The notes under the pieces were generated by a model. That model searched no databases and was not told the DNA's origin. It worked only from the letters and a program-made list of their open reading frames with translations. Made by a program: the position numbers and the translations under genes. DNA of 64,000 nucleotides from a virus: positions 64,001-128,000 of the IMG/VR virus record IMGVR_UViG_3300014911_000001. One strand, 5' to 3'. Positions 2,031 to 60,672 of this stretch are shown piece by piece. Each line of letters starts with the position of its first letter. The stretch's first letter is position 1.

Positions 2031-2081
2031 GCCCGCCATTAAATCGAAGCGCGCAACCCGGCGGGCTTAGGTCGCGCGCTT
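2031..2081 (-). ncRNA. H-type pseudoknot upstream of RBS
   Basis: S1 AAGCGCGCGACC/GGUUGCGCGCUU, loop UAAGCCCGCCG, S2 GCCCGCC/GGCGGGC. Confidence 0.75.
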
Positions 2082-2088
2082 ACTTTTT

Positions 2089-2760
2089 TTATTCCACTTT
2101 ATTGACCCAGTCGGCTTTGGCATACGGCTTGCCGTTTATATACCACCTCTTCTCGGACGTTATGAGCACGGTTTCATAGCGCTCAAGTAGGTAATCGTTA
2201 CGCTCCCTTACCACGACAGCTTTAGGCTCAGGGATGATGGCATCGGTACCATGTGGAGGTGTGGGAGGGAAAATTGAAACGAGCTGACGTGGAAGGATGA
2301 CAAGAGAAAGGTGTTTGCCTTTCTGTTTGATGCGACTCCTGATGGTCTTCTCGAGACCCTTCTCGACGATTACGTAGCCATACGAATCCGCAGCCTCCTG
2401 GGCGAGTGTGTTCGCCATTTTATTCCCTGTTCTGGCTGTGTGTTTTACAATAACCTCCTTATGCTGGTTATCAGCGTAGTACCTAGCCAGCTCATATAAT
2501 TCCATAAGCTCAGGCTTCTTAATATCATATTCTTGGTTAAACTGCTTCACCACTAACTGTGAGTCGCTGTGTATTGTGGTATCACCCTGGATGTACTGGC
2601 TAATGTATGTCGCAAGAACTAGTGCTGCCCATTCAGCCTCGTTGTTTGTTGCCTCCCCAATGGGTATTGATAGTGATATACCAACCTCCGGAATATATAT
2701 CCCAATCCCAGCGGGACCGGGATTGCCTTTTGATGAGCCATCAATGTAAATGTTAGTCAT
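2089..2760 (-). CDS. rnhA: ribonuclease HI-like protein with C-terminal extension
   Basis: [40 protein letters not shown] motifs. Confidence 0.9.
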
Positions 2761-2774
2761 AATACCTCCTTTAT

Positions 2775-3197
2775 TTATGGTTTAACTTTTCGTAAGCCGA
2801 GGCAACCTATCGGTCGTATGCTTCCACTGCTGGTCTTTTCATATACAGGATGAGCAATCGTGTATAACTTGTCTACGTTAGGTAGGTTGAGAGCAACTGC
2901 TGCAGAAGCATATTGATTACTAACAATTATTATATCAGCATCATCAGGGATGGGATCAATATCCTGTATCCTCTGTGTTATAACTGGGATCATAACCTCA
3001 CCGTTCACTGGACATTCGTAAAGGATGCTCGGAAGGAATTCGGTTTCATGGTGGACATTCAGAAGGATTCCGGAGGGTGGAATTATGGTAACTAGCTTGG
3101 TTTTTTCAGGCTCTATGAAGTATTTCCTGTGCTCACTTATGTAAACGGCGTCCTCAAAAATACATATCTCGTGAGGAGTGCAGTTTAAGATTTTCAT
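2775..3197 (-). CDS. conserved phage hypothetical protein (NxTPH type)
   Basis: ILNCTPHEI start and IIVS..IGCLGL end; SD present. Confidence 0.7.
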
Positions 3198-3219
3198 TAC
3201 ATACCTCCTTTTATTAGGC

Positions 3220-3279
3220 GGGCCTCATTACACCACCATGCAGAGCAGCAGGGCGAGGCCCTTAACCCTGAAGCTCTGC
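3220..3279 (-). ncRNA. H-type pseudoknot upstream of RBS
   Basis: S1 GCAGAGC..CAGGGU/GCCCUG..GCUCUGC, loop UAAGGGCCUC, S2 GGGCCUC/GAGGCCC. Confidence 0.7.
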
Positions 3280-3294
3280 GAAGAAAGAGAGCTA

Positions 3295-3627
3295 TTAGGA
3301 CAAGCGTTCTGCTTCCTGTCTAATCCGAACGGCATCCCTTACTACCTCTAACAGCGAAGGCGGTATAACCCTATTGTTCGAGGTTTTCCCAGTGCGCAAA
3401 TCAACTGCGACAGCACAATCATGCTCGTAAAAGTATACTATATCCCCATCCGGGAAGAATGTTCCATTAGCAGTAGCAACATTATAAATCAGATCGTTGG
3501 TGTATTCGCCGGGATCGCGATATGGTGTATAATGATCCTGAGCGTCCGGTGTTTCACAACCGGTAGTGCTTCTCACACATACATCACACCTGCCACTTCT
3601 ACACAGACGGCACTTATCAAATAACAT
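3295..3627 (-). CDS. hypothetical protein with N-terminal Cys cluster
   Basis: CxxC-x4-CxxC; SD present. Confidence 0.65.
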   Translation of the reverse strand: MLFDKCRLCRSGRCDVCVRSTTGCETPDAQDHYTPYRDPGEYTNDLIYNVATANGTFFPDGDIVYFYEHDCAVAVDLRTGKTSNNRVIPPSLLEVVRDAVRIRQEAERLS

Positions 3628-3654
3628 GATAACCTCCTTATTTTAATGTTTTAT

Positions 3655-3706
3655 GCCCGCCATTAACCAAGCCAGCAAGGACCGGCGGGCTTAGCCCTCA
3701 CTGACT
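3655..3706 (-). ncRNA. H-type pseudoknot upstream of RBS
   Basis: S1 AGUCAGUGAGGGC/GUCCUUGCUGGCU with G-U pairs that fix the strand, loop UAAGCCCGCCG, S2 GCCCGCC/GGCGGGC. Confidence 0.75.
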
Positions 3707-3726
3707 ATTAATTTCCAACTAATTGA

Positions 3727-4095
3727 CTACACAAGTGACGGGCCGAGGGCATCCTCTATTTTGGGACGCCCATACTCAACCTTCCACCCATTTTTAGGCG
3801 GAAGGTTGCGGACCCACCAGTCATACCACTGGCGGTCCATCACCTTTATAAGTTTGGATCGCTTGAAAAACACAGCGATCCACTTCCTTCTTCCCCCAGA
3901 ACGAGGGGAGAAAAACCATATAATCTCATTGGGTCGCACCTTGCCTGTTTTAACAAGATGCGACCACTGCGACCCAGTATTCACATTCTGGGCCGCTAAA
4001 ATAAACTCGTAATGGTTGCGCCACCTTTCGATGGCGCTCTCCCCGGATAACAACTTGGGGAGGTTGATTCTCAAGAAGTTAGTTAATGATAACAT
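3727..4095 (-). CDS. hypothetical basic, Trp-rich protein
   Basis: Start re-called to MLSLTN after GAGGAGGTG SD. Confidence 0.7.
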   Translation of the reverse strand: MLSLTNFLRINLPKLLSGESAIERWRNHYEFILAAQNVNTGSQWSHLVKTGKVRPNEIIWFFSPRSGGRRKWIAVFFKRSKLIKVMDRQWYDWWVRNLPPKNGWKVEYGRPKIEDALGPSLV

Positions 4096-4119
4096 AATAC
4101 ACCTCCTCTTTTGGAGGTT

Positions 4120-4177
4120 GCCTGCCACTTTTACCCACAGATAAGGCGAGGCCGGCAGGCTTAACCCCGCCTTATCT
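4120..4177 (-). ncRNA. H-type pseudoknot upstream of RBS
   Basis: S1 AGAUAAGGCGGGGU/GCCUCGCCUUAUCU, loop UAAGCCUGCCG, S2 GCCUGCC/GGCAGGC. Confidence 0.75.
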
Positions 4178-4285
4178 TACTACTCCAGCTCATTGACTCC
4201 ATCACGAGCCAACAAGCCGGCCAAACCCTCCGTCACCCTCGCGGCACCGCTCCTCGCAGGCCGCACACAGGGGAGGAGGGCTTGG

Positions 4286-4353
4286 GGAGGCCTCTTAGAC
4301 CCTCTGTCGAGGGAGCTCCAGCGCCACGCCAAGGCGGGCCTCCAGTGCTGGAG
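4286..4353 (-). ncRNA. HDV-like ribozyme fold, copy D
   Basis: P1 CUCCAGC/GCUGGAG, P2 GGAGGCC/GGCCUCC, P3 GCC/GGC, L3 UUGGCGU, P4 CCCUC/GAGGG, J4/2 UCUAAG. Confidence 0.8.
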
Positions 4354-4403
4354 TAGCCCCCGGCACGGGGGCTTCATTCTTTTTTCTCTCCACCTCCTTT
4401 CTA

Positions 4404-4440
4404 GCGGGATGAGCTAGCCCGGCCACCTAGCCCATCCCGC
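4404..4440 (-). ncRNA. 14-bp hairpin 3' of the RNAP gene; loop complementary to a 5'-UTR bulge
   Basis: GCGGGAUGGGCUAG/CUAGCUCAUCCCGC with loop GUGGCCGGG. Confidence 0.7.
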
Positions 4441-4457
4441 GGTTTAAGGTTTAACCT

Positions 4458-6857
4458 TTAATCGAGCTTCCAGAAGTTGAGCCAAAATTCGCGATCGGCA
4501 TTAGCAAGAGGATGAAGACCAGCAGGAGTTGTAATCCTAAGAAGCCGCGCGATTTCCCAGTTTCGCTTCCGACCAGTATGAAGTTCCACAAGAAATCTCA
4601 CATGAGATTCAAGTTCAGATTCGGTACCAGCAACAATTGCAAGGAAGTCGTTCTCAGCAACGGTAAGAGATTTCCAAGTGGTAAGAATTGCCTGAGGTTC
4701 AAACGCAGCAAGAAGTTTACGGAATCGCCGGTTGAGTCTCCGGAAGTTCCTAGTAAGAAGTATACGTAGCTCAGCAATCCTGCTGTTGAGGAAGCGCCTA
4801 CGCCGATCCAGTTCCCGTCTCCTATTTTTGAGGGTAGCCAGAGCATCGGATAGGGTATTAAGCCTAGGTAGCAGCCACTTTTCCATTTTCTGCCTCAGAA
4901 CTTCGTTTCTGATCCCAGATACTAGGAACCTGACTTTAGTTTCAGGTTTCGCATTAGCGAAGAGTCTCCGGCTCCGATTAACTACCGTATCAACCGCCGT
5001 CACTTTCTCCGCAAGAGCATTCACTTCATTTTCTATCTTCCGTATCCGAGAGAGCATCCGTCCAAACATGCGCCTCCTTATGCGATCCCACTTGAGGAAC
5101 AATGCCTTAACTTCTGGATCAATGGTGCCATCAGGAATAAGATCCTTAAGAGACCTAACTTCTGGCTCAGCAAACTTAACTTCAGGAATAAATTCAGCAA
5201 GAGGACCTGTCGGAGTTATGGCTGCTGGATCAGCTTTCGCGGTTCGGTTAGTGATCATTTGAGTAATAGTATCAAGCCTGGCAGTCGTACTCGCGAGTAG
5301 ATGCAGTCCCGCTTCTACCTCATGACGAAGCTCCGGTTCTTTACCATTAGCAAGATTCACCGCAGCTTGGAATAGCGCTCCAGCTTTCGCAATAAGATCC
5401 ACATTAATCTCAGTATCAGAAAGAAGCATCCTAGTGAAGCCAGCATCTGCCCGTGCGATCATCTCCTTCCCTAGCTCAATATTTTCCACTTCAGTACTAG
5501 GATCCATTCTCCACTTCCCGAAAGAGATTTCTTTTATCTTGCTTCGTATGCTATCGAAGAATTCCTTAGCAACAAGAGGCTCCTTGAAGACCTTGGATGC
5601 CGCGGCGAGAGCCACTTTGTCGCCATCGGCATCCCATCCGCTAGGCATATCTGCAGGGTGTACCAGAATCGCATGCGCACGATGGTCAACAATAATAGGA
5701 AGGATAAGAGTATCACCAGGCAAGATGGGCGACTTCTGTATGAGTAGGAGTTCTCCATCTTTCAGACCAAGCATACGTGCAATCACAGGAGGAATAACAG
5801 CAGTGCCGGGATGTGCATTCTGAAATCCCAGATAGAAGCCCGGGCCTAGTCTCAACTTCCGAAGTGCGATCTTTAAGTGGTCCAGAAGCACTCTCCGCAG
5901 GAAGCCTGCCTCCTTTATGAGGCCGAATTTCCGCAGAATATCAGCAGTCAGAGTCAGCACTGCACTAGGTTCATTGATCGGATCAGCGTTTTTAACAAGG
6001 ATATCAGCCGCTACCTCAGGATCAGAAAAACCATTAATAGCTTCAGCAATCTGCTCCTGAATCCGTTCAACAAACTCAGGCGCTGGATTAACATTCCATC
6101 CGAGTTTCCTTGGCAGAAGGAACCAGCGCGGCAGAGCTTGGCTGAGACTGATGCCACCCGCGAATACGGCACCAACCTCATGCAGCATGATGGTTCGCCC
6201 GAGTTCGAGTACGAAGCGCCGCCTCTTGATGAGTTTTGCGGTGTCAGCATCAGCGACGATATCAGTCCCTGTCTCTATCTCAGTAAGAACTTTATCAGCA
6301 AGAACCTCATCTCCCAGATACAACATCAGCCTCTGGAACCCGACTCTGCCGGGAAGAACTGGTACCGCTATCCCTTTCAGTCCAATAGCTGTAATCTTAA
6401 AACCACGTTTAATAAGAGCACGAGTTACCGCAGGGATATCAGCTTCTGTAGGAGCATGAGCACGCGCAACCAGCTCTGTAAACCTCTCGGACACGAAGAA
6501 AATTCCGTCTACACCCATTTTAGCATCGAGCTTGAGGCCGCGAACATCCACATTAGCCACTCGCTCAGGTTTAAAGTGCCAGCCCTTATTTGGGATCTCC
6601 GGAGTTGTCATCATCTGAATTCGCTTACCAGGAAGAGTTCTCAGATCAAATCCGTGATCGCCGAGGATATCTGCAATCACCTTATTAACCTTATCAATAG
6701 CAGAAGCAGGAACTACTCTAAAGACCCGACAATCAGGAACCATGGTTGGTTTCATTGGAAGATCAGAGTTCAGATCAGGATCAAATGCGAAGAAGACACT
6801 AGCACCAGCTTCAGCGAATAGAATAGCAAGAGGAGACTTCGGTATTCTTTCCATCAT
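4458..6857 (-). CDS. single-chain double-psi-beta-barrel RNA polymerase (YonO/cRdRP-like), ~799 aa
   Basis: Ordered motifs GVDGIFFVS (DG), GLKG (KG), IQKSP ([RK]xP) and catalytic GWDADGDK (DxDGD); start re-called to 6857 after AAAGGAGGTG. Confidence 0.75.
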   Translation of the reverse strand: MMERIPKSPLAILFAEAGASVFFAFDPDLNSDLPMKPTMVPDCRVFRVVPASAIDKVNKVIADILGDHGFDLRTLPGKRIQMMTTPEIPNKGWHFKPERVANVDVRGLKLDAKMGVDGIFFVSERFTELVARAHAPTEADIPAVTRALIKRGFKITAIGLKGIAVPVLPGRVGFQRLMLYLGDEVLADKVLTEIETGTDIVADADTAKLIKRRRFVLELGRTIMLHEVGAVFAGGISLSQALPRWFLLPRKLGWNVNPAPEFVERIQEQIAEAINGFSDPEVAADILVKNADPINEPSAVLTLTADILRKFGLIKEAGFLRRVLLDHLKIALRKLRLGPGFYLGFQNAHPGTAVIPPVIARMLGLKDGELLLIQKSPILPGDTLILPIIVDHRAHAILVHPADMPSGWDADGDKVALAAASKVFKEPLVAKEFFDSIRSKIKEISFGKWRMDPSTEVENIELGKEMIARADAGFTRMLLSDTEINVDLIAKAGALFQAAVNLANGKEPELRHEVEAGLHLLASTTARLDTITQMITNRTAKADPAAITPTGPLAEFIPEVKFAEPEVRSLKDLIPDGTIDPEVKALFLKWDRIRRRMFGRMLSRIRKIENEVNALAEKVTAVDTVVNRSRRLFANAKPETKVRFLVSGIRNEVLRQKMEKWLLPRLNTLSDALATLKNRRRELDRRRRFLNSRIAELRILLTRNFRRLNRRFRKLLAAFEPQAILTTWKSLTVAENDFLAIVAGTESELESHVRFLVELHTGRKRNWEIARLLRITTPAGLHPLANADREFWLNFWKLD

Positions 6858-6871
6858 ATCACCTCCTTTCC

Positions 6872-6998
6872 GCCGCGGATTTCGTTGCCCTCGGTGCGGC
6901 ACTCCGAGGGTCGCCGGGCTTCGAGCGTCATTGGTGCCAAGGCTGGCCATAGAATGAAGCCCGGAAATTCCATGGCCATGGCCGGGCGCCTCAGCACC
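6872..6998 (-). ncRNA. two tandem pseudoknots in the RNAP 5' leader
   Basis: PK-a: GGUGCUGAGGC/GCCUUGGCACC plus UGGCCAUGGAAU/AUUCUAUGGCCA, loop CCGGGCUUC pairs GAAGCCCGG. PK-b: CCCUCGG/CCGAGGG, loop GCCGC pairs GCGGC just before the SD. Confidence 0.7.
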
Positions 6999-7042
6999 TC
7001 TGCCCTCTTTTTATCCATTCTTTCTTACCTCCTTTATAAATA

Positions 7043-7121
7043 GAGGGACTCTTAGGCCCTTAGGCTATTGACCTAAGGGAGCCCCGGCGCCACGACAAGG
7101 CGGTCCCTCAAAAAGCCGGGG
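7043..7121 (-). ncRNA. HDV-like ribozyme fold, copy C
   Basis: P1 CCCCGGC/GCCGGGG, P2 GAGGGAC/GUCCCUC, P3 GCC/GGC, L3 UUGUCGU, P4 CCCUUAGG/CCUAAGGG, J4/2 CCUAAG; begins directly after the upstream UAA stop. Confidence 0.8.
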
Positions 7122-7589
7122 TTAACTCAATTTGACATCATTATTATCCTTCTCTTTCTTTATCCACTCTATCAATTCATCCACTAGGCGCTCCACATTA
7201 TAATCATCAATAATAAGAAGCGCCCTCCTGACCTTGTAGCCGAGCACCTCATGCGCTTTTAGCACATGCCTCGGCATCCAAGGCCAGGTCTCATTGTATC
7301 CCCCATTATATTTGATTTGGAGAAGGATTACCTCCTTCTTATGGGGGATACCAATGCTGACGTCGATTTTAAATACGACGTCAGCTTTACTCCCGATAGG
7401 ATAGTCTATTAATTTCCATCCCGCCGGAAGCTTGGAGGATAGTTCTTCAATGAATCTATCCTCCGCTTCGAAGCCAGCTCTATGCGCCTCATGTGCGATA
7501 GAGCTAACCTCGAAATCCGGGCGGATTATTTCATGACATTCCGCCCAGAATTTTCGCGCTATAGTGCGGGCATGCGTTTCCATATCCAT
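7122..7589 (-). CDS. hypothetical protein, possible PD-(D/E)xK nuclease fold
   Basis: G.EAE...D...KID...LLQIK pattern; SD present. Confidence 0.5.
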   Translation of the reverse strand: MDMETHARTIARKFWAECHEIIRPDFEVSSIAHEAHRAGFEAEDRFIEELSSKLPAGWKLIDYPIGSKADVVFKIDVSIGIPHKKEVILLQIKYNGGYNETWPWMPRHVLKAHEVLGYKVRRALLIIDDYNVERLVDELIEWIKKEKDNNDVKLS

Positions 7590-7601
7590 GGTTGCCTCCT
7601 T

Positions 7602-8177
7602 TTACTCGACAAGAACATGATATATTCCATTTATTTTCTTTACTTTCCTTACTCTAAATAAACATTTATCCACAATTACTTCCTCTTCTTCACAATAAGG
7701 TTGCAAATTCAACAATCTCCCCTCTGCTTTAGTCATAAATACAACAGGAACTACATCAGGAAAATTATATCCTTCCCACAAATCCGGGTCATCAAACTCG
7801 TTATCATAACTTCTCTTTTTTCAAATTGCGAAGCGCTTTGCAACTGCATAACGCCTCGTCCAACTCATATTGATAGATATTTTCCTCCCTATCTGAGGGA
7901 TAGCATATACAACATCCCCTCTGAATAATAGTGATCTTACCTTAGGACACCCTAATAACGATATTTTTAAGGCGAGCTTAGAAATATAGATACCTCTCCC
8001 CTTCCACATTCTCAGCAAAGCGATCCTATTGTCTTTTGAAAATATCCCGCACAAAATTCTCAGCTTTTTCAATAACAGCTTGTATTTCATTTGGAGATGG
8101 TTCAGCTTTATTTCCCAACTCCTGTAAAAAACATTCCTTTTAGGATCTTTAATGAATAACGAAATGACCCACCACAT
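7602..8177 (-). pseudogene. ~191-codon ORF interrupted by one in-frame TGA at 7821-7823
   Basis: The frame continues KKRSYDNEFDDPDLWEG...HVLVE to TAA at 7602, next to the following SD. Confidence 0.6.
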
Positions 8178-8193
8178 TGTTACACCTCCTTTT

Positions 8194-8299
8194 GCCCGTA
8201 TTAGTTTACCAAGGGCACCATCTGACCTGCGGGCATTGATCAGACGGTGCCTATGTTACAAAACGGGCACCGTATAGTCATGGTAACAATACGGTGCCC
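8194..8299 (-). ncRNA. two tandem H-type pseudoknots upstream of RBS
   Basis: GGGCACCGUAU/AUACGGUGCCC with loop UGUUAC pairing GUAACA; GGCACCGUCUGA/UCAGAUGGUGCC with loop GCCCG pairing CGGGC. Confidence 0.7.
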
Positions 8300-8318
8300 T
8301 CACAACATCCCCTTTTAT

Positions 8319-8396
8319 TAGGGTGCTCTTAGACCCTTAGGGATTGGACCTAAGGGAGCCCCTCCACCACGTCAAGGTGGCACCCTATCGGAGGGG
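8319..8396 (-). ncRNA. HDV-like ribozyme fold, copy B
   Basis: P1 CCCCUCC/GGAGGGG, P2 UAGGGUGC/GCACCCUA, P3 ACC/GGU, L3 UUGACGU, P4 CCCUUAGG/CCUAAGGG, J4/2 UCUAAG. Confidence 0.8.
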
Positions 8397-8449
8397 TAGC
8401 AAGGCCATCATGTGAGGCCTTGCTTTGGCTTGGGCGGCACCTCATCATC

Positions 8450-8746
8450 TTACACATAAAAGCGATCCAACCCCTCAATATGAGGGGTTGTTTTGCTCTC
8501 CCTATCAACGATGTACAAGTTAGTCCCTATCCGAAATATGTCATGATACTTACACGCCTCCGGCTCCACAATAAGCTCTGCATCCTCAGGTATATATCCA
8601 ACCCATCCTTTGTACAAGCACCTCCGCACTAAGACATGAGTAAAACAGCTGGAATCAACAAGTGTAAGTCTATCATCATCATCATCGTAAATTCCGATAT
8701 ACCAGTAGTTATCTCTCACCAAGACTTTAATGACTTTTACCGCCAC
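8450..8746 (-). CDS. hypothetical protein (98 aa)
   Basis: GTG start at 8746 after AAAGGAGG; the upstream extension in the ORF track is structured RNA. Confidence 0.7.
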   Translation of the reverse strand: MAVKVIKVLVRDNYWYIGIYDDDDDRLTLVDSSCFTHVLVRRCLYKGWVGYIPEDAELIVEPEACKYHDIFRIGTNLYIVDRESKTTPHIEGLDRFYV

Positions 8747-8760
8747 GATAAACCTCCTTT

Positions 8761-8820
8761 CGCCGCACCTCAGTTCAGCCCCCGACACGCATGCGGTGCG
8801 GCATTTACATACGTGTCGGG
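8761..8820 (-). ncRNA. H-type pseudoknot abutting the SD
   Basis: S1 CCCGACACGUAUG/CAUGCGUGUCGGG, loop UAAAUGCCGCACCG, S2 GCCGCACC/GGUGCGGC. Confidence 0.8.
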
Positions 8821-8836
8821 ATGCCGCCCAAGCCAT

Positions 8837-8907
8837 CGGACGCTCTTAGACCTAGCCACAAGGCTAGGAGCCCCTCCACCACGTCAAGGTGGCGTCCGTC
8901 GGAGGGG
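8837..8907 (-). ncRNA. HDV-like ribozyme fold, copy A
   Basis: P1 CCCCUCC/GGAGGGG, P2 CGGACGC/GCGUCCG, P3 ACC/GGU, L3 UUGACGU, P4 CCUAGCC/GGCUAGG, J4/2 UCUAAG. Confidence 0.8.
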
Positions 8908-8956
8908 TAGCAAGGCCATGCGAGACCTTGCTTTGTCTGCGGGGGCACCATGAATA

Positions 8957-9190
8957 TTATAACTCTGATGGACGGGGCCTCTGTAACGATTCAAAATATA
9001 GCGATAAAGCCTCCATGAATGTCACAGGAATCCCTTTTTTCTTATACTGGAATGGAGGCGCCGGAACATTACCCAGCACCTCCTTTGTTATTTTTATTGC
9101 AATGTAACCTCTAAGTTCCTTAAACCGGTATGTCTTGATTTCACCATTATTATAAATGGTGATAGCATTCACGTTTTTTGACATCCTCAT
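8957..9190 (-). CDS. hypothetical protein, first gene of the leftward operon
   Basis: AAGGAGG SD, 77 aa. Confidence 0.7.
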   Translation of the reverse strand: MRMSKNVNAITIYNNGEIKTYRFKELRGYIAIKITKEVLGNVPAPPFQYKKKGIPVTFMEALSLYFESLQRPRPSEL

Positions 9191-9206
9191 TTTATCCTCC
9201 TTTTTC

Positions 9207-9266
9207 GCCGCGCCTTGGTTCTACGCCCAGCATGTACGCGGCGCGGCATTTACGCACATGCTGGGC
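9207..9266 (-). ncRNA. H-type pseudoknot abutting the SD
   Basis: S1 GCCCAGCAUGUGCG/CGUACAUGCUGGGC, loop UAAAUGCCGCGCCG, S2 GCCGCGCC/GGCGCGGC; covaries with 8761-8820. Confidence 0.8.
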
Positions 9267-9544
9267 TGGCGCCCCCGCAATCCCCTATTAGCCGAGGAAG
9301 CAAATCAAAAATCAAGGGGGCAGGGGGGTCGAAATACAATCCGACCCCCTCAAAATCCACAATAGAGACCTCCTGAATTTTTTGCCGATTTCTTGACCCT
9401 TATGGACCTCCCTGTAGACTCATTCCGACGGGGTACCTTGCGGCATAGGGAGGTGTTCTATGAGGTTGTTGGTTGGACTGGATATGGGCTTGTGATGGTT
9501 ATTGTGTTAGGGTCTGGGGGGTGTGGGACCTCTTGTGGGCTTGT

Positions 9545-9720
9545 TTGTGACTATGTGGGTTGGTGTGGGCTACCCCTTTTCGACCCTATGGGTCTGCTCT
9601 CTATAAGGCTTCCTGCTTCAGCGAGGGATAGCTAGGCTTATGTGAAGCCCCCGCCAGAGCCCTCTCCACAGGCATAAGTTCGGGCCGCCCCGGCCCTACC
9701 ACCCGTGAGGTGGGTGAGCC
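9545..9720 (-). ncRNA. TnpB omega-RNA (reRNA) scaffold plus putative guide
   Basis: GGGGCGGCCCGAAC..GCCUGUGGAGA..UCGCUGAAGCAGGAAGC..GGGGUAGCCCAC matches the IS200/IS605 right-end RNA pattern; the guide would start at 9564 (ACCAACCCACAUAGUCACAA). Confidence 0.8.
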
Positions 9721-10432: not shown

Positions 10433-10824
10433 TTTATCTCCTTATTGTTTTTATCGTTGAAATATGTTTTTCTAAATTCCTCTAGGATAGGTTCATCACC
10501 TGTACCATAGAGGACGGCGTGCATCCATTCAGTTACTTGATCTGCTGTATGGTGTGGAAATACATCCTTCATGCATCCGAAGTATTTTTGCCAGTTGGTT
10601 GGTTTAGGTTTTTTATGTTCTTTTATAGTCCATTTTTTGGTAGCTGTGGCGGATCCGTAGGTTGTGAGGATGAGGCCTATAATTATTATTATTATGGTGT
10701 ATGTAGTGGGATTATTGGTGTAGTGGTGGAGGAGGAAGCCGGCCGCAGTGGTAAGGAGGCCCCAGAATCGTTTGCTTTTCCAGAAGGGTTTGGTGTTATT
10801 ATTGTTATTATCGTGTGTGCTCAT
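10429..10824 (-). CDS. membrane protein, holin-like N-terminus
   Basis: KPFWKSKRFW followed by two TM segments. Confidence 0.55.
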   Translation of the reverse strand: MSTHDNNNNNTKPFWKSKRFWGLLTTAAGFLLHHYTNNPTTYTIIIIIIGLILTTYGSATATKKWTIKEHKKPKPTNWQKYFGCMKDVFPHHTADQVTEWMHAVLYGTGDEPILEEFRKTYFNDKNNKEIK

Positions 10825-12052
10825 TTTGGATCTCCTTTATGTTATGAAGCCCGCGCTTCAGTATATTAATACTTGCATTATAATCTCTATCGAGGGTTGC
10901 ACCACAGAACGGACATTTATGTATACGATCGTGGAGTGATTTGGGTACCTTATGTCCACATGAGGAGCATGTCTGCGTAGTATATGCTGGGTTAACCTTG
11001 ATGACCTGTGAGCCGTGAAGCCGCGCCTTGTAGGATGTTAGATTGATAAGTGTGTTCCATCCTGCATCGTAGATGTATTTAGAGAGGTGAAGCCGGCGGC
11101 GCTTGCTTACAAGATCACGTATTTTTATATCCTCGAATATAATAATATCATAGTTAGTAGCAAGCTGGTGTGAGATATGATGGAGGAAGCCGCGCCGCAT
11201 GTTAGCTAATCGTTCATGGAGTCTGGCTAGTTTACGCCTCTGTTTCATATAATTAGCACTCCCTCGCTGCTTGCGCGAGAGCTGTTTTTGTACACGCTTT
11301 ATACGTTTTTCGAGTTTGGTGATGAAGCGCGGGTTAGATACAATATTACCATCACTTGATACGATGAGATTCGTAAGCCCGAGATCTATACCGATGATGC
11401 GCTGCTTATTATTAGTATCGATAACGATAGTAGCGTCATTATTATTGGGTACTTCAACTGTTACATATACATACCATCTACCGCTGGGATGTCTTTTTAT
11501 AGTAACATTTTTGGCTTTAGTCCAGTCGATGGGTCGGTGAAGGCGGATTTTTAAGCCGCCGAGTTTGGGTAAATGAATATATGCGAACTTATCATTCAGT
11601 TTCTCAAATTTAATGACAGGATACCCATCCGGATAGTTTTTATGAGTCATCCAAACTTGTGGATATGTAAGTGATAGATATTGATCAGGTTTTTTGGGTT
11701 TAGGCGGACTTATATGTCCTTCTTTATTCCTGATGGCTACAAAGAAACGCTTATATGCCCAGTCAATCTTATCAATTATAGCCTTTAAGACACCTGAATA
11801 AACGAGCCTTAAGGCAGGTTCCTCTCTTTTAAATGCGGTTAGGTTACGTTGCCTCTCAAATTTTGTAGGGGTTCTATGTTCTTCATCCCATATACGTCTG
11901 TATTCATTTATTTCGTAATTATAGAACCAGCAGAGGATGGACAGCCAGTTTTCTAGTTTGTATTCTTGTAGTGTTGTTGGATAGGCTCTGAATTTGTAGG
12001 TGAGGTAGGAAGCCGCCGCCTTATCAGTATTTTTTGATCCCTGTTTATTCAT
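10808..12052 (-). CDS. tnpB: IS200/IS605-family TnpB RNA-guided endonuclease (no TnpA nearby)
   Basis: YKFRAYPT, RuvC-I GIDLG, RuvC-II FEDI, TTQTCSSCG/CPFCG zinc finger, RuvC-III DRDYNASINIL. Confidence 0.95.
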   Translation of the reverse strand: MNKQGSKNTDKAAASYLTYKFRAYPTTLQEYKLENWLSILCWFYNYEINEYRRIWDEEHRTPTKFERQRNLTAFKREEPALRLVYSGVLKAIIDKIDWAYKRFFVAIRNKEGHISPPKPKKPDQYLSLTYPQVWMTHKNYPDGYPVIKFEKLNDKFAYIHLPKLGGLKIRLHRPIDWTKAKNVTIKRHPSGRWYVYVTVEVPNNNDATIVIDTNNKQRIIGIDLGLTNLIVSSDGNIVSNPRFITKLEKRIKRVQKQLSRKQRGSANYMKQRRKLARLHERLANMRRGFLHHISHQLATNYDIIIFEDIKIRDLVSKRRRLHLSKYIYDAGWNTLINLTSYKARLHGSQVIKVNPAYTTQTCSSCGHKVPKSLHDRIHKCPFCGATLDRDYNASINILKRGLHNIKEIQNEHTR

Positions 12053-35717: not shown

Positions 35718-36439
35718 CAACGCAGATAATAAAAAGTTTACGCTCCCAAGTTTTTATACCGCCGTCGTTGCAGGAAATGGAGCATATTGCTACACGTATG
35801 CGACATTTTACACAGTTGAAGCAGGCACGTAGCGCGTTCCAGCGGGCGTGGAGTTTCGCACGCAAGACTGGTTTAGGAGCTGAGTATATTGCAGCAGCGC
35901 GCCCATATATTTTAGGTAAGTATTGGAAAGCTGTAACTGGAATATCAGGTGGTTATAAAGGTAAGGTATGGGCTGAGGAGGTTTTTAAAACGCTGAGTAC
36001 GCACTATGCTAGGTTTACAAGGGCGCCATTAACCACAACTATGGGTGTGCGTCAGGGATTGCGTACACCATTACTTGTATCGGAGTCGATTTTAGGTAAG
36101 CGAGTTATATCATTGAAATCTGTTGCTGGTGCTGCAGCGGCTTCCCGTGCTGCTGCACAGGCTGGTGCTATAGGCGCTGCAAAGGGAGTAACAAATAGGG
36201 TAATGAGGAATCGTTTATTGAAGCGTATTGCCCAGGGAACATTTAAGTTTGCACAGACCAAAACAGGCGCATTTACAGCTGCTGTGCTCGGCGGGCTTAT
36301 AGCATTAACAATTGCTGGTGCAAGTTATGTAAGAAGGAATCCATCAGAGGTTGCTTTGGCCCAGCTTAGGCAGCGTAGGGCCACACGTTATCCAAGGGCG
36401 CCTTCTGGTTTGGTCTTTGCCCTACATGCAACAAGATAA
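35714..36439 (+). CDS. basic Ala-rich protein with a hydrophobic helix
   Basis: Composition; ends SGLVFALHATR. Confidence 0.6.
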   Translation: MTTQIIKSLRSQVFIPPSLQEMEHIATRMRHFTQLKQARSAFQRAWSFARKTGLGAEYIAAARPYILGKYWKAVTGISGGYKGKVWAEEVFKTLSTHYARFTRAPLTTTMGVRQGLRTPLLVSESILGKRVISLKSVAGAAAASRAAAQAGAIGAAKGVTNRVMRNRLLKRIAQGTFKFAQTKTGAFTAAVLGGLIALTIAGASYVRRNPSEVALAQLRQRRATRYPRAPSGLVFALHATR

Positions 36440-36440
36440 T

Positions 36441-38897
36441 ATGGAAGGGAAAAGGTTATCATTAAAAGAGCTAAGTGCTGATGAACTTTTGCGCATACGC
36501 AAATCCGCTTCTTACTTTGTTGAATTATTCCTGCGTGATCCAACCGACCCGCGCCGGCCTCTAAAACTCTACGATTACCAGCGTGAGGTTTTGGATTATC
36601 CCGGTAAGAAGGTTGTTATAAGAGGTGGCCGTGGTGTCAGTAAAACCACGATGATGGCATGGAAGGCATTACACCGTGCCTTCACGATACCAAGGCATGT
36701 TATTATTTATTTAGCACAATCGGAGACGATGCTGCTCAGATTTTTTACTGATTACCTTGACCGCTTCATTACAGATTCACCTCTAAGTAAATCAAAGGTT
36801 GCCTACCGCAAGCAGCCTCAGTATGAGATTGTATTGAGTAATGAGTCAAAAATTTTGGGGTTTGTTGGTAATTCCACGCAGACAATCAGAGGCCCGCGGG
36901 CTGGTACCATTCTTATTGATGAATGTTTTCACGGTATGACGAAGGTCTTAACACAGCGCGGGCTTATTCCCATCAGTCGTGTTAGGGATGGTGATTATGT
37001 TCTTGATGCTGATAGCAAATGGGTGCGTGTTATCCGTGCTGCGATGACGGGTGTTAAAGAAATGTGGGTTATTGAGCTACCTATATCAGATGAAAAATTG
37101 GTTGTTACACCTAATCATCCTGTTTTAACAAAGGATTCAGGATTTCAGCCTCTTAATATAGTTGATGAGATACCGATTAGTTGTCGTTATTATGAGCCTT
37201 TTGAGTATCCTAAGGAAGCGGCGCTGGCGCTTATTTATGCACGATATATAAGCGAGCGTGAATCGCTTGTATTTAATAATGAAGGTGTGCGGCTTATTAT
37301 ATCTGGTTATCCCAGATTCCGCACATTTTATGAGCGTTTCACGGCGGGCAGACATATTAATCCTGTGCTTATTGAGAAGGATTTTATAGACGGAAAAATT
37401 GATCAGCGTCTTTTTGTATATTATCTAGCTGCATTTGTTAATAGATTTCCTAAGATTGTCATCGATTATCTGACGGGGTTGGGTTATAAGGTTATAGCGG
37501 GTTCGCTGGCTAGTGATGATGTACCTAGATATGAAAAGGAGATAGGTTTTCCATTTTTTGAGTCAGGATGGTCAACGATTGTAAAATTAGCTGATAAGTT
37601 GAACCGTGATCCTGTTGAGTTATATAAGGAAATGAATTGGTACAATACAGGCATATTTGTTCCTTATAAGAAGAAATCTACCATTAAGGCGGCGGCTTAT
37701 AACCTTACTACCGAATCGGGGACTTATTGTGTCTTTATTGGTGGATTCCGCATTCCTGTTCACAATTGTGATTATATACCTGAGCGTAAGTTTGTAGAGG
37801 TATTTGGTACAACAATGTCAATGGAGGATGTTGTTATATGGTTATCATCCACACCCAGTCCTAAGAGAGGTTACTTTTGGCGTGCGTGTAATGACGAACG
37901 CATGGGATTCAAGGAGTTTCATTTACCAAGTTGGTTGCATCCGACATGGACGTGGATGAAGGATGCTGAGAGGTTGGGCATACCTATCGAAGAGACAACA
38001 GAGTATCAAACTCGTGTTGAGTTTCCTAACCAAGCTGACTGGTTGCGTGAAATAGCCGCTGAGTTTGTCGATCTTGAGGAGAGTGCTATACCATCAAAAT
38101 ATATAGATGAAGCATTCCAGCATTATGACGGTGAGGTGAGCAGGAAGCGCGGCTTCCGCATCCTTGGTATCGATTGGAATGCGATGGCAGCAGGTGTTGT
38201 TATGGTGTTAGTAGAATACGATAATAAAAATAATGTATTTAGGGTTATCCATTCAGAAACGATTTCTAATGTTGAATATCATCACCAGAAGGCATTGCAA
38301 CGTATTGTTGAGATGGTTAAACAATATCGCATTGATGCTATTGCAGCTGATTGGGGTTATGGAGAAAGTGATATACAGCAGCTTCAGCTTATTGGTAGAG
38401 CTAAAGGGATTCGCGCGCTTACCGACATCATGGCCGTAAAGTTTAATGAAAAGATGAAGATACCGCTTTTTTCGGGTGGTTATGATGAATGCTATGCTAA
38501 GGAATACCTTATGCGGTTGGTCAGGAAGTTATTTGAGATGGGTGCTATCATGCTGCCTCCATCGGAGGATGAAAGGTTGCCTGAAAATTACGCTGATGCT
38601 ACGAATATGTTGGGATACCAGTTGCGTAATTTGCGTGCTAAGGTAACGGGGACCGGTCACCTTACCTATGTTGTTGAACCAGACCATAAATTTGCTGCAT
38701 TTTTGGCTGCTGTCTATGGATTTTATAGGACATTCCAACCGCGTATAGATCCGGTGCAGGGGCTTATTATTTATAATGATTTAGAACGGCAAGAACAGAA
38801 GTTGGATCATGTTCCTAGTATAACATTACAGCCGAAGAAGACACAGCGGTTTGTCCATAGAGTTACAAATAGGTATAAGCCAATAAGAACTGTATGA
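36441..38897 (+). CDS. terL: terminase large subunit containing an intein
   Basis: YDYQ, GGRGVSKT, ILIDE, SSTP, RNase H-like LGIDWN and ADWGYG. Confidence 0.93.
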   Translation: MEGKRLSLKELSADELLRIRKSASYFVELFLRDPTDPRRPLKLYDYQREVLDYPGKKVVIRGGRGVSKTTMMAWKALHRAFTIPRHVIIYLAQSETMLLRFFTDYLDRFITDSPLSKSKVAYRKQPQYEIVLSNESKILGFVGNSTQTIRGPRAGTILIDECFHGMTKVLTQRGLIPISRVRDGDYVLDADSKWVRVIRAAMTGVKEMWVIELPISDEKLVVTPNHPVLTKDSGFQPLNIVDEIPISCRYYEPFEYPKEAALALIYARYISERESLVFNNEGVRLIISGYPRFRTFYERFTAGRHINPVLIEKDFIDGKIDQRLFVYYLAAFVNRFPKIVIDYLTGLGYKVIAGSLASDDVPRYEKEIGFPFFESGWSTIVKLADKLNRDPVELYKEMNWYNTGIFVPYKKKSTIKAAAYNLTTESGTYCVFIGGFRIPVHNCDYIPERKFVEVFGTTMSMEDVVIWLSSTPSPKRGYFWRACNDERMGFKEFHLPSWLHPTWTWMKDAERLGIPIEETTEYQTRVEFPNQADWLREIAAEFVDLEESAIPSKYIDEAFQHYDGEVSRKRGFRILGIDWNAMAAGVVMVLVEYDNKNNVFRVIHSETISNVEYHHQKALQRIVEMVKQYRIDAIAADWGYGESDIQQLQLIGRAKGIRALTDIMAVKFNEKMKIPLFSGGYDECYAKEYLMRLVRKLFEMGAIMLPPSEDERLPENYADATNMLGYQLRNLRAKVTGTGHLTYVVEPDHKFAAFLAAVYGFYRTFQPRIDPVQGLIIYNDLERQEQKLDHVPSITLQPKKTQRFVHRVTNRYKPIRTV
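36924..37766 (+). mobile_element. intein (281 aa) inserted right after the TerL Walker B DE
   Basis: Starts CFHGMTKV, block B VTPNHP, ends AYNLTT...VHN with +1 Cys. Confidence 0.92.
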
Positions 38898-60295: not shown

Positions 60296-60672
60296 TGAAT
60301 CTTATACGTATTAAGTATGAGGATACCACCTATGAATTTAATTATCCCACCCTATTTGATTACTACTTGTTTATTGATGGTCAAAAAGTTCGGGTATTTG
60401 ATCGCCTCGCATTAAAGGATTATAGTATTCCATCAATTAAGAAGGTGCGCATTATAACCATCCTCTTTCGTCACTTCCCCGCCTTTGCTACAGAGGATGA
60501 GGTATTTTCCAATATACCGGATGCTGGTGGTTTGATTTATTTAATTCGGGCATTTGGATATAAACCTCACGAATTATTGCAGTTAAATCCTTATGAGCTT
60601 GATTTTGCGGTAAGGTTGGCGGAATATATAAACAATCCAAAACTAGAGAATGACAGTAGTCCGCAGGAATAA
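60295..60672 (+). CDS. putative tail assembly chaperone
   Basis: Position; RAFGYKPHELLQL. Confidence 0.45.
   Translation: MNLIRIKYEDTTYEFNYPTLFDYYLFIDGQKVRVFDRLALKDYSIPSIKKVRIITILFRHFPAFATEDEVFSNIPDAGGLIYLIRAFGYKPHELLQLNPYELDFAVRLAEYINNPKLENDSSPQE

Follow-up and report, generated by a model that had tools for sequence, protein, structure and literature searches.

A family of H-type pseudoknots in the gene leaders of an early-type phage operon

A minus-strand operon of early type in a tailed phage of about 176 kb, known from hydrothermal-vent and sediment samples, carries a family of nine H-type pseudoknots, eight of which stand just before the Shine–Dalgarno (SD) sequence of a gene. The operon extends from about position 9300 to below position 1763 of a 64,000-nucleotide stretch of viral DNA (hereafter the window; positions 64,001 to 128,000 of IMG/VR record IMGVR_UViG_3300014911_000001), which is part of one 175,796-bp contig. 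The fold is kept by compensatory changes in related phages, is restricted, by the scans and patterns tried, to this operon and lineage, and travels between genes together with its ribosome site. We propose that the pseudoknots act in cis as structured leaders that would protect the 5′ side of each cistron and keep its ribosome site clear, a reading to which we assign a probability of about one half. Positions are those of the window, and the features are collected in Table 1.

A pseudoknot family in one operon

Nine of the ten elements listed by the original prediction, a reading of the DNA letters, fold as H-type pseudoknots on the minus-strand RNA, in that the loop of a hairpin pairs with the 3′ tail. 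The tenth, at 8254–8299, is a hairpin only: the AU-rich second stem (S2) proposed for it is not kept in a related phage, L012, and it is rejected as a pseudoknot. The common layout consists of a long GC-rich first stem (S1), usually of 12–15 bp (7 bp in one copy), and a loop that opens with AA(A), usually the whole of loop 1 (L1), after a closing U and continues with a mostly GCC-initial segment. This segment is complementary to a stretch that begins 8–15 nucleotides (nt) after S1 (21 nt in pseudoknot X), giving an S2 of 6–9 bp. L2 is absent in six of the nine copies, and S1 and S2 form a coaxial stack of 20–24 bp, or about two helical turns in most copies. Most members match the long S1, UAA-type loop start and 5–9-bp S2 first ascribed to the family; departures include the element at 6871–6910, with an S1 of 7 bp, and that at 6914–6978, with an L1 of UU.

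We used two scanners to assess how far this fold is concentrated in the operon. A strict version, which demands an ungapped S1 of at least 10 bp and a Watson–Crick S2 of at least 6 bp, returns eight matches in the 7.4 kb between 2000 and 9400 (minus strand), compared with a mean of 0.14 (maximum 1) in 200 dinucleotide shuffles. Across the rest of the 175.8-kb genome, searched on both strands (2 × 168 kb), the same scanner yields about 11 weaker matches. A tolerant version, which requires the pseudoknot to be followed by an SD and a start codon within 45 nt, finds nine such combinations genome-wide, six of them in this operon. Apart from those weaker matches, the earlier remark that no such element occurs outside the operon holds.

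The pairing is specific to each copy. Ten distinct S2 segments each pair with their own partner, with a mean Watson–Crick run of 7.4 bp, compared with 3.7 bp when loops and tails are mismatched. S1 is wholly different between copies, and the sequences of S2 and L3 vary too; seven of the nine copies share the AA of L1 and an initial GCC in S2, and there is no other unpaired conservation. G·U pairs account for 21 of the 188 stem pairs, so that only the minus-strand RNA folds, as had been suggested on the same grounds. An A-form geometry estimate indicates that every L3 (8–21 nt) is long enough to span S1, and that L1 spans S2 provided that the outer one or two S2 pairs stay open in two copies. 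Minimum free energies, computed with nested pairs only, are −5 to −14 kcal/mol at 70 °C.

Placement relative to ribosome sites

In eight of the nine copies, S2 ends 2–16 nt before the AGGAGG of an extended SD of the AAAGGAGG(U) type. The distance given originally for the SD-proximal copies was about 0–15 nt. Pseudoknot X is not adjacent to an SD. Two classes can be distinguished. In the close class (four copies), S2 ends 2, 2, 2 or 4 nt before AGGAGG, and the A-run of the SD follows directly after S2; in the far class (also four copies), an A/U-rich spacer of 10–16 nt separates S2 from AGGAGG. The distance that stays constant is that to the SD, not that to the upstream stop codon, which is 7–20 nt or far more. 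A candidate self-cleaving ribozyme (described below) precedes five of the nine, either directly or with a spacer between. The tails after S1 are mixed in sequence, and a terminator scan flags none of the copies, in keeping with the earlier view that these elements lack U tracts and are not terminators.

Two other explanations of this placement are rejected. Pseudoknots 7–20 nt past stop codons could be stimulators of stop-codon readthrough, but further in-frame stops follow at once. A promoter between pseudoknot and SD would begin the transcript inside the SD, and the promoter scan is at chance.

Two other GC-rich loop-to-tail hairpins occur on the minus strand outside the window, at G000:C1:40154-40197 and 60454-60522, and do not belong to this family. 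In the first, the S2 partner overlaps an SD (CGAAGG of GAAGGAGG), and this element could be an SD-sequestering pseudoknot.

Covariation in both stems

Relatives of the phage were retrieved through the 799-amino-acid (aa) protein encoded in the operon, and comprise L012 (a 147-kb viral contig), L013 (a 40-kb metagenome contig) and the fragments L014–L017. Pairs were counted only on a gapless four-sequence alignment (A4). A whole-family MAFFT alignment (A1) and two ortholog alignments (A2 and A3) were not used for counting; they placed the arms of the stems in differing registers, and thus one structure line could not be applied to them. In A4, 92.7% of cells are paired, compared with 30–54% when the partners are slid, and 13 of the 24 pairs have changed on both sides. 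S2 is 100% paired in this alignment and includes three compensatory pairs.

Comparison of single elements reveals further compensation. Between pseudoknot 2 and its L012 counterpart, five S1 pairs have changed on both sides in a compensatory way and one shows a wobble change; none is disrupted. The S1 arms of pseudoknot 7 are largely rewritten yet paired in L012, L013 and L017, and S1 of pseudoknot 9 is likewise rewritten but paired in L013, where one S2 G–C pair has become G·U. Changes in both S1 and S2 of pseudoknot X are compensated in L013, L014 and L016. An ortholog of pseudoknot 8 is present in L017, the L013 copy of pseudoknot 3 carries one S2 mismatch, and pseudoknot 5 is identical in all relatives and hence offers no covariation to draw on. 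Indeed, the observation that sequences differ while pairing is kept extends to both stems among related vent phages.

A covariance model built from A4 (R1) recovered only the seed subfamily and the short copy at 6859–6915 (E 0.2), and is thus too seed-specific to define the family. The subfamily DNA patterns that were tried across viral contigs found only this vent-phage lineage; one further pattern match, in L025, lies inside coding sequence and is rejected as a chance hit.

Leaders are portable between genes

The leaders are not bound to the genes that follow them. Homology between the window and L012 breaks at 9187 (just past the first start codon), at 8822 (the border between an arm and a pseudoknot) and at 8190 (the end of a pseudoknot), and the first and third leaders precede other genes in L012. 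In L013, the third leader is fused to the gene for a 155-aa protein, and the leader at 3706 stands before RNase H. Two vent metagenomes contain contig joints that connect 7599 to 8177 (at the start codon), 8245 to 9318, and 3253/3268 to 3632/3643, the last of which runs from within one pseudoknot to the SD after another. Since the genes behind one and the same leader differ among the window, L012, L013 and the metagenome variants, the leader is gene-independent and portable. This contradicts autoregulation by the downstream gene product, which is excluded, and makes the leader a natural junction for cassette exchange.

Ribozyme candidates and arm helices

Four candidate ribozymes resembling that of hepatitis delta virus (HDV) lie between genes of the operon (candidates a–d). 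Their elements follow in the order P1a, P2a, a P3 hairpin with a 7-nt loop, P1b, CUC, a P4 hairpin, CUAAGA and P2b, which corresponds to the HDV-type nested double pseudoknot P1–P2–P3–P1.1–P4 in which P1 has 7 bp, P3 is short and L3 has 7 nt. A descriptor search of the genome returns these four GC-rich copies and no others. With a DNA pattern, the fold was also recovered from L001, L006 and L007, which represent three unrelated phage lineages; matches to the pattern in L002–L005 and L008–L010 are rejected as chance. The 14 copies from the four lineages contain 8 distinct P1 and 9 distinct P2 sequences, all paired, and the joining letters are invariant (L3 UUGNCGU, J1/4 CUC and J4/2 C(U/C)AAGA).

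As in HDV ribozymes, J4/2 opens with a cytosine followed by N-A-A, and L3 contains U...C-G. However, all copies have C1–G37 in place of the typical G1·U37 wobble, and the HDV models of Rfam do not score the candidates (E ≤ 10). Fast natural HDV-family ribozymes with C at position +1, and with a P1.1 made of one Watson–Crick pair plus U:U, have been published (PMC13635239). Judged from fold and sequence, the four candidates are probably self-cleaving ribozymes, with about two chances in three.

The predicted cuts of candidates a–d fall at 8908/8907, 8397/8396, 7122/7121 and 4354/4353, respectively. Three of the four candidates are preceded by a hairpin and ‘UA’. L007 has two copies of the ribozyme motif, about 640 nt apart. 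It also shows the order hairpin–ribozyme–hairpin–SD, which is a simpler form of the same leader arrangement. A match below threshold to RAGATH-18 (29.3 bits, compared with a gathering score of 44.9; E 0.027) is located at 9610–9672 (minus strand), between the dUTPase gene and the operon. The name of that family comes from its association with ribozyme-linked genes.

Long-range arm helices, each specific to its cassette, pair sequence immediately 5′ of a pseudoknot with sequence immediately 3′ of the stop codon. Such helices were sought for every cassette, and only the three ribozyme-delimited cassettes have them. Cross-cassette controls give −7 to −28 kcal/mol (Table 1 lists the energies of the matched arms), and the arms of the polymerase cassette, which encodes the 799-aa protein, are weaker and less specific than the other two pairs. 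In L012, the order arm–pseudoknot–SD–gene–arm–hairpin–UA–ribozyme occurs three times, with arm sequences that differ each time.

Possible functions of the leader pseudoknots

We infer both ribozyme cleavage and a protective or insulating role for the pseudoknots from the arrangement described above. If this model is correct, the HDV-like ribozymes would cut the long transcript at four places, and an arm helix would tie the ends of the message together in each of the three ribozyme-delimited cassettes. At every spaced gene start, the pseudoknot would then stand as a heat-stable mechanical obstacle 5′ of the ribosome site, able to stop either enzymes that degrade RNA 5′-to-3′ or helicases and ribosomes that approach from upstream. 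GC-rich upstream RNA, such as ribozyme strands and arms, would be locked away, leaving the purine-rich ribosome site free. Pseudoknot and SD together would form a portable, gene-independent expression leader, which would explain the gene swaps at its borders.

This reading retains only part of the proposal that the pseudoknots protect cut mRNAs. The four ribozyme candidates between genes, upstream of five of the nine pseudoknots, speak for it, but pseudoknots 3706, 3279 and 2081 have no ribozyme nearby and pseudoknot 9266 follows a terminator–promoter region, so the role cannot be solely that of capping ribozyme-cut ends. The earlier thought that the pseudoknots themselves are an unrecognized small ribozyme is unlikely, given that nothing unpaired is conserved beyond the AA of L1 and the initial GCC of S2, and that the true ribozyme candidates are a separate, neighbouring motif. 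Of the other early proposals, a translation enhancer is a possible role, and so is a protein-binding site for a factor other than the product of the downstream gene.

Several observations weigh against a protective leader. Pseudoknots 3706, 3279 and 2081 lie 7–20 nt past the upstream stop in an apparently uncut polycistronic stretch, and hence away from any known 5′ end, and genes that abut their upstream neighbour (starts 7589 and 2760) do without a pseudoknot. A putative open reading frame (ORF) at 7018–6854, if translated, would carry ribosomes through two pseudoknots. Exposure of the SD relative to shuffled leaders is inconsistent across genes and temperatures, in a comparison whose nested-only folding cannot model S2. 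Finally, the AA of L1 and the initial GCC of S2, conserved in otherwise diverged copies, could point to recognition by a factor.

A broader version of the protective leader, which we offer only tentatively, is a natural, wholly RNA-encoded ‘plug-and-play’ message format of thermophilic phages that combines ribozyme excision, a cassette-specific arm clamp, a 3′ hairpin cap and a pseudoknot that would stack beside the SD–rRNA helix. If true, the leader would stabilize ribosome binding at high temperature and serve as a standard junction for gene exchange between phages.

The alternative that survives best, although we consider it unlikely, is a shared operator: every pseudoknot would be bound by a single trans-acting RNA-binding factor, such as an early phage product or a host ribosomal or other protein, that switches translation of the whole operon jointly. 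The letters kept in seven of nine copies while S1 has wholly diverged are what such a factor might read, and many small operon proteins without a known family could be the factor. Binding would begin at the pseudoknot and, in far-class copies, extend along the A/U-rich spacer of 10–16 nt onto the ribosome site, in the manner of T4 gp32, whose gene 32 operator has a similar layout (PMC3014915). However, close-class copies offer no spacer for spreading, no candidate RNA-binding protein was identified, and portability excludes autoregulation by the downstream product. The conserved letters are also few, and can be explained by common descent together with structural needs, namely adenines of L1 that lie in the groove of S2, and the heat stability that a GC-rich S2 gives.

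A stack of S1 and S2 that reaches about two helical turns in most copies might instead be a processing signal, cut by an RNase III-type or other nuclease or by the RNA itself, so that ribozyme-free junctions would likewise yield gene-length mRNAs. Phage T7 uses RNase III sites for mRNA processing, and the pseudoknots hold the intercistronic position that ribozyme candidates hold elsewhere in the operon. We nonetheless judge this improbable. The pseudoknots have no conserved unpaired core of the kind found in self-cleaving RNAs and no match to a known ribozyme family even at E ≤ 10, a second cut would be redundant for the five pseudoknots downstream of ribozyme candidates, and the short copy at 6910–6871 has only 13 stacked pairs.

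It is very improbable that the pseudoknots are pause, termination or anti-termination signals that set gene dosage, read by a two-barrel polymerase of the phage or by the host enzyme. This idea draws on the polymerase-like protein of the operon (PF05183 look-alikes in a protein atlas, score 0.95, a lead only), on the presence of hairpins at every spaced junction and on the fact that, to our knowledge, the signals read by such phage polymerases are little known. Yet no copy is followed by a U tract or flagged by the terminator scan, the fixed spacing relates to the SD and not to the upstream stop, and the covariation of S2 includes the 3′ tail, which a co-transcriptional hairpin would not need.

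Repeats that act solely as DNA, as cassette recombination junctions like the promoter-early stem-loops (PeSLs) of T4-like phages and without an RNA function, are scarcely credible. Homology breaks with L012 and L013 and vent deletion joints do coincide with the edges of leaders, the SD or the start codon. Yet compensatory changes keep both helices, 21 G·U pairs work only as minus-strand RNA, S1 differs between copies and offers little homology for recombination, no promoter-like sites above chance accompany the repeats, and shuffling at the borders is more likely to result from a conserved leader.

Individual elements and their surroundings

Pseudoknot 1 is the first leader after the terminator–promoter region of the operon, and an identical copy precedes a different gene in L012. 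Pseudoknot 2 comes after ribozyme candidate a and a 5′ arm. Pseudoknot X comes directly after a 5′ arm, that of the polymerase cassette, and lies within the putative ORF at 7018–6854. Pseudoknot 7 is intercistronic and has no ribozyme. On paper the S2 of pseudoknot 9 has 9 bp, of which the outer two A–U pairs are excluded because they would leave no L1. Directly after pseudoknot 6, a hairpin at 4118–4101 (minus strand) uses an anti-SD, ACCUCC, to hold the SD GGAGGU of a 122-aa gene. This pairing is kept in L013 with shifted sequence, and the hairpin may be a switch that depends on temperature or on the ribosome.

Table 1 Pseudoknots, ribozyme candidates and arm helices of the operon, in order of transcription
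Feature	Position	Strand	Structure	Context
5′ arm, cassette 1	9268–9279	minus	pairs with 8949–8938; −39.7 kcal/mol	
Pseudoknot 1	9206–9266	minus	S1 9266–9252 with 9239–9225 (15 bp); L1 AAA; S2 9248–9240 with 9214–9206; L3 10 nt	AGGAGG 4 nt past S2; start 9190
3′ arm, cassette 1	8938–8949	minus		just past stop codon
HDV-like ribozyme candidate a	8837–8907	minus	P1 7 bp; P2; P3 with 7-nt L3; J1/4 CUC; P4; J4/2 CUAAGA	predicted cut 8908/8907
5′ arm, cassette 2	8822–8835	minus	14 perfect bp with 8439–8426; −36.0 kcal/mol	
Pseudoknot 2	8761–8821	minus	S1 8821–8807 with 8794–8780; L1 AAA; S2 8803–8795 with 8769–8761; L3 10 nt	AGGAGG 2 nt past S2; GTG start 8746
3′ arm, cassette 2	8426–8439	minus		
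HDV-like ribozyme candidate b	8319–8396	minus		
Hairpin	8254–8299	minus	11 bp	between ribozyme candidate b and pseudoknot 3
Pseudoknot 3	8193–8251	minus	S1 14 bp; L1 AA; S2 8235–8230 with 8198–8193 (6 bp here, 8 bp in L012); L3 15 nt	AGGAGG 2 nt past S2; start 8177
HDV-like ribozyme candidate c	7043–7121	minus		begins directly after stop of 155-aa gene
5′ arm, polymerase cassette	6979–6987	minus	9 bp with 4425–4417; −22.5 kcal/mol	
Pseudoknot X (atypical)	6914–6978	minus	S1 12 bp; L1 UU; S2 9 bp starting CCGGG; L3 21 nt	
Pseudoknot 5 (short)	6871–6910	minus	S1 7 bp; S2 6 bp; L3 11 nt	AGGAGG 2 nt past S2; start of 799-aa gene 6857
3′ arm, polymerase cassette	4417–4425	minus		
HDV-like ribozyme candidate d	4286–4353	minus		
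Pseudoknot 6	4120–4177	minus	S1 15 bp; L1 AA; S2 7 bp; L3 12 nt	start 4095
Pseudoknot 7	3655–3706	minus	S1 14 bp; L1 AA; S2 7 bp; L3 8 nt	16-nt A/U-rich spacer to AGGAGG; start 3627
Pseudoknot 8	3220–3279	minus	S1 7+5 bp around 2×2 internal loop; L1 UUAA; S2 7 bp starting GGGCC; L3 13 nt	10-nt spacer to AGGAGG; start 3197
Pseudoknot 9	2029–2081	minus	S1 13 bp; S2 7 bp; L3 9 nt	11-nt spacer to AGGAGG; start 2005

The putative coding ORF at 7018–6854 (minus strand) has 54 codons and its own strong SD, starts just past ribozyme candidate c, and its stop codon overlaps the start codon of the 799-aa gene as AUGA. All relatives keep this frame open, although a second frame is open as well; the ORF may serve the polymerase gene as a coupling leader. 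Another ORF, of 65 codons, at 4377–4180 (minus strand) starts 24 nt before the predicted cut of ribozyme candidate d, reads across that candidate and stops 3 nt before pseudoknot 6. Its SD is well spaced in L012 and 15 nt away in the window. Either this ORF is spurious or its translation competes with folding of the ribozyme.

The genes of the operon are mainly orphans, the exceptions being RNase H (2760–2089) and the 799-aa protein (6857–4458), and searches of Pfam and PHROGs with ten operon proteins identified RNase H only. The gene for the 799-aa protein (4458–6857, minus strand), which has ribozyme candidates c and d on either side, is itself an orphan with no Pfam match; its nearest clusters in the atlas (score 0.95) carry PF05183, the family of two-barrel ‘RdRP’ polymerases, and are no more than a lead. 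Between the genes for the 118-aa and 155-aa proteins, the interval 7600–7830 (minus strand) is AT-rich and holds no pseudoknot and one short, doubtful ORF. The best promoter-like site of the region (10/12) lies inside it, at 7792–7764, and vent-metagenome variants cleanly delete 7599–8177.

The phage genome has a GC content of 40–46% and encodes a terminase, a capsid protein, ribonucleotide reductase, PhoH, dUTPase and a TnpB-type transposase. The gene for the large terminase (36351–38897, plus strand) is split by a Hint (intein) domain, and the TnpB/IS605 OrfB-type gene lies upstream of the operon at 10808–12052 (minus strand). Megablast against GenBank phages gives no match; vent and sediment metagenomes contain the same DNA, together with relatives that share 30% of its words.

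Comparison with known systems

At the gathering score, Rfam assigns no family in the 64 kb to the pseudoknots, and at E ≤ 10 on 8.5 kb and 0.8 kb it returns nothing relevant among pseudoknot riboswitches (preQ1, SAM-II and guanidine-III), exonuclease-resistant RNAs (xrRNAs) or ribozymes. A ligand-binding pseudoknot riboswitch would have an invariant unpaired pocket, whereas here S2 and L3 vary and only AA and GCC are common to the copies. The GC-rich hairpin plus U tract of an intrinsic terminator is likewise absent. PeSLs of T4-like phages combine an early promoter with a stem-loop at cassette borders; in this operon, the borders coincide with leaders, and promoter-like sites are at chance and non-adjacent.

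The xrRNAs of flaviviruses and plant viruses use a three-way junction or stem-loop to form a ring around their own 5′ end, held by conserved tertiary contacts. Stalling of a 5′-to-3′ exonuclease by a pseudoknotted fold, as proposed here, would be analogous. However, the present elements are plain H-type pseudoknots with a long S1, no three-way junction and no Rfam match, which counts against cut-end protection in its xrRNA form. Other known stabilizers are the 5′ stem-loop of ompA and, in Bacillus, the 5′ structures and bound ribosomes that block RNase J1. There, as in our model, a stable structure near the 5′ side of the ribosome site prolongs the life of the mRNA without sequence specificity, but those structures are simple hairpins at a true 5′ end, unlike pseudoknots that are provided for each cistron and are in some cases internal.

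The leader pseudoknot is a known kind of element, and its classical case is the translational operator in the gene 32 leader of phages T4, T2 and RB69 (PMC3014915). In both systems, the leader of a phage mRNA contains a coaxial H-type pseudoknot ahead of the ribosome site, and the four far-class copies also lead into an A/U-rich, unstructured spacer. In contrast to the single autoregulatory copy of gene 32, nine copies stand before unrelated genes here, S1 is far longer (12–15 bp), the four close-class copies abut the SD by 2–4 nt, and there is no sequence similarity.

The closest engineered parallel in order of parts is RiboJ, a synthetic ribozyme and hairpin placed before a ribosome-binding site, which raises mRNA and protein levels (PMC6206723). 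The order of ribozyme, structured spacer and ribosome site is shared, as would be the expected effects: a defined 5′ end, independence of upstream context and higher stability. By comparison, the phage elements are natural, the spacer is a pseudoknot, the HDV-like candidate would stay on the downstream fragment, four of the nine copies have no upstream ribozyme, and some cassettes add arm helices. In prophages, hammerhead ribozymes are found on either side of single genes (Perreault et al. 2011, PMC3088659), and those operons resemble the present one in having several self-cleaving RNAs (candidates here) between small, changeable phage genes, with processing into gene-length mRNAs implied. They differ in that the candidates here are of an HDV-like C1–G37 variant and in that the published description includes neither pseudoknot leaders nor arm helices.

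The novelty lies in the form: the pseudoknots number nine, their S1 is long, their position relative to an extended SD is fixed, and they are coupled to HDV-like ribozyme candidates and clamp helices. Neither the pseudoknot motif nor the ribozyme motif is catalogued in Rfam, and the pseudoknot family adds an uncatalogued RNA motif to the phage repertoire. In bacteria, structured leaders that protect or present a message are known mostly as single hairpins or one-off operators. If the proposed protective or insulating role is true, these leaders would offer a defined system for the study of mRNA end protection at high temperature and heat-stable parts for expression systems in thermophiles, and would be a natural counterpart of the synthetic insulators built from a ribozyme and a hairpin.

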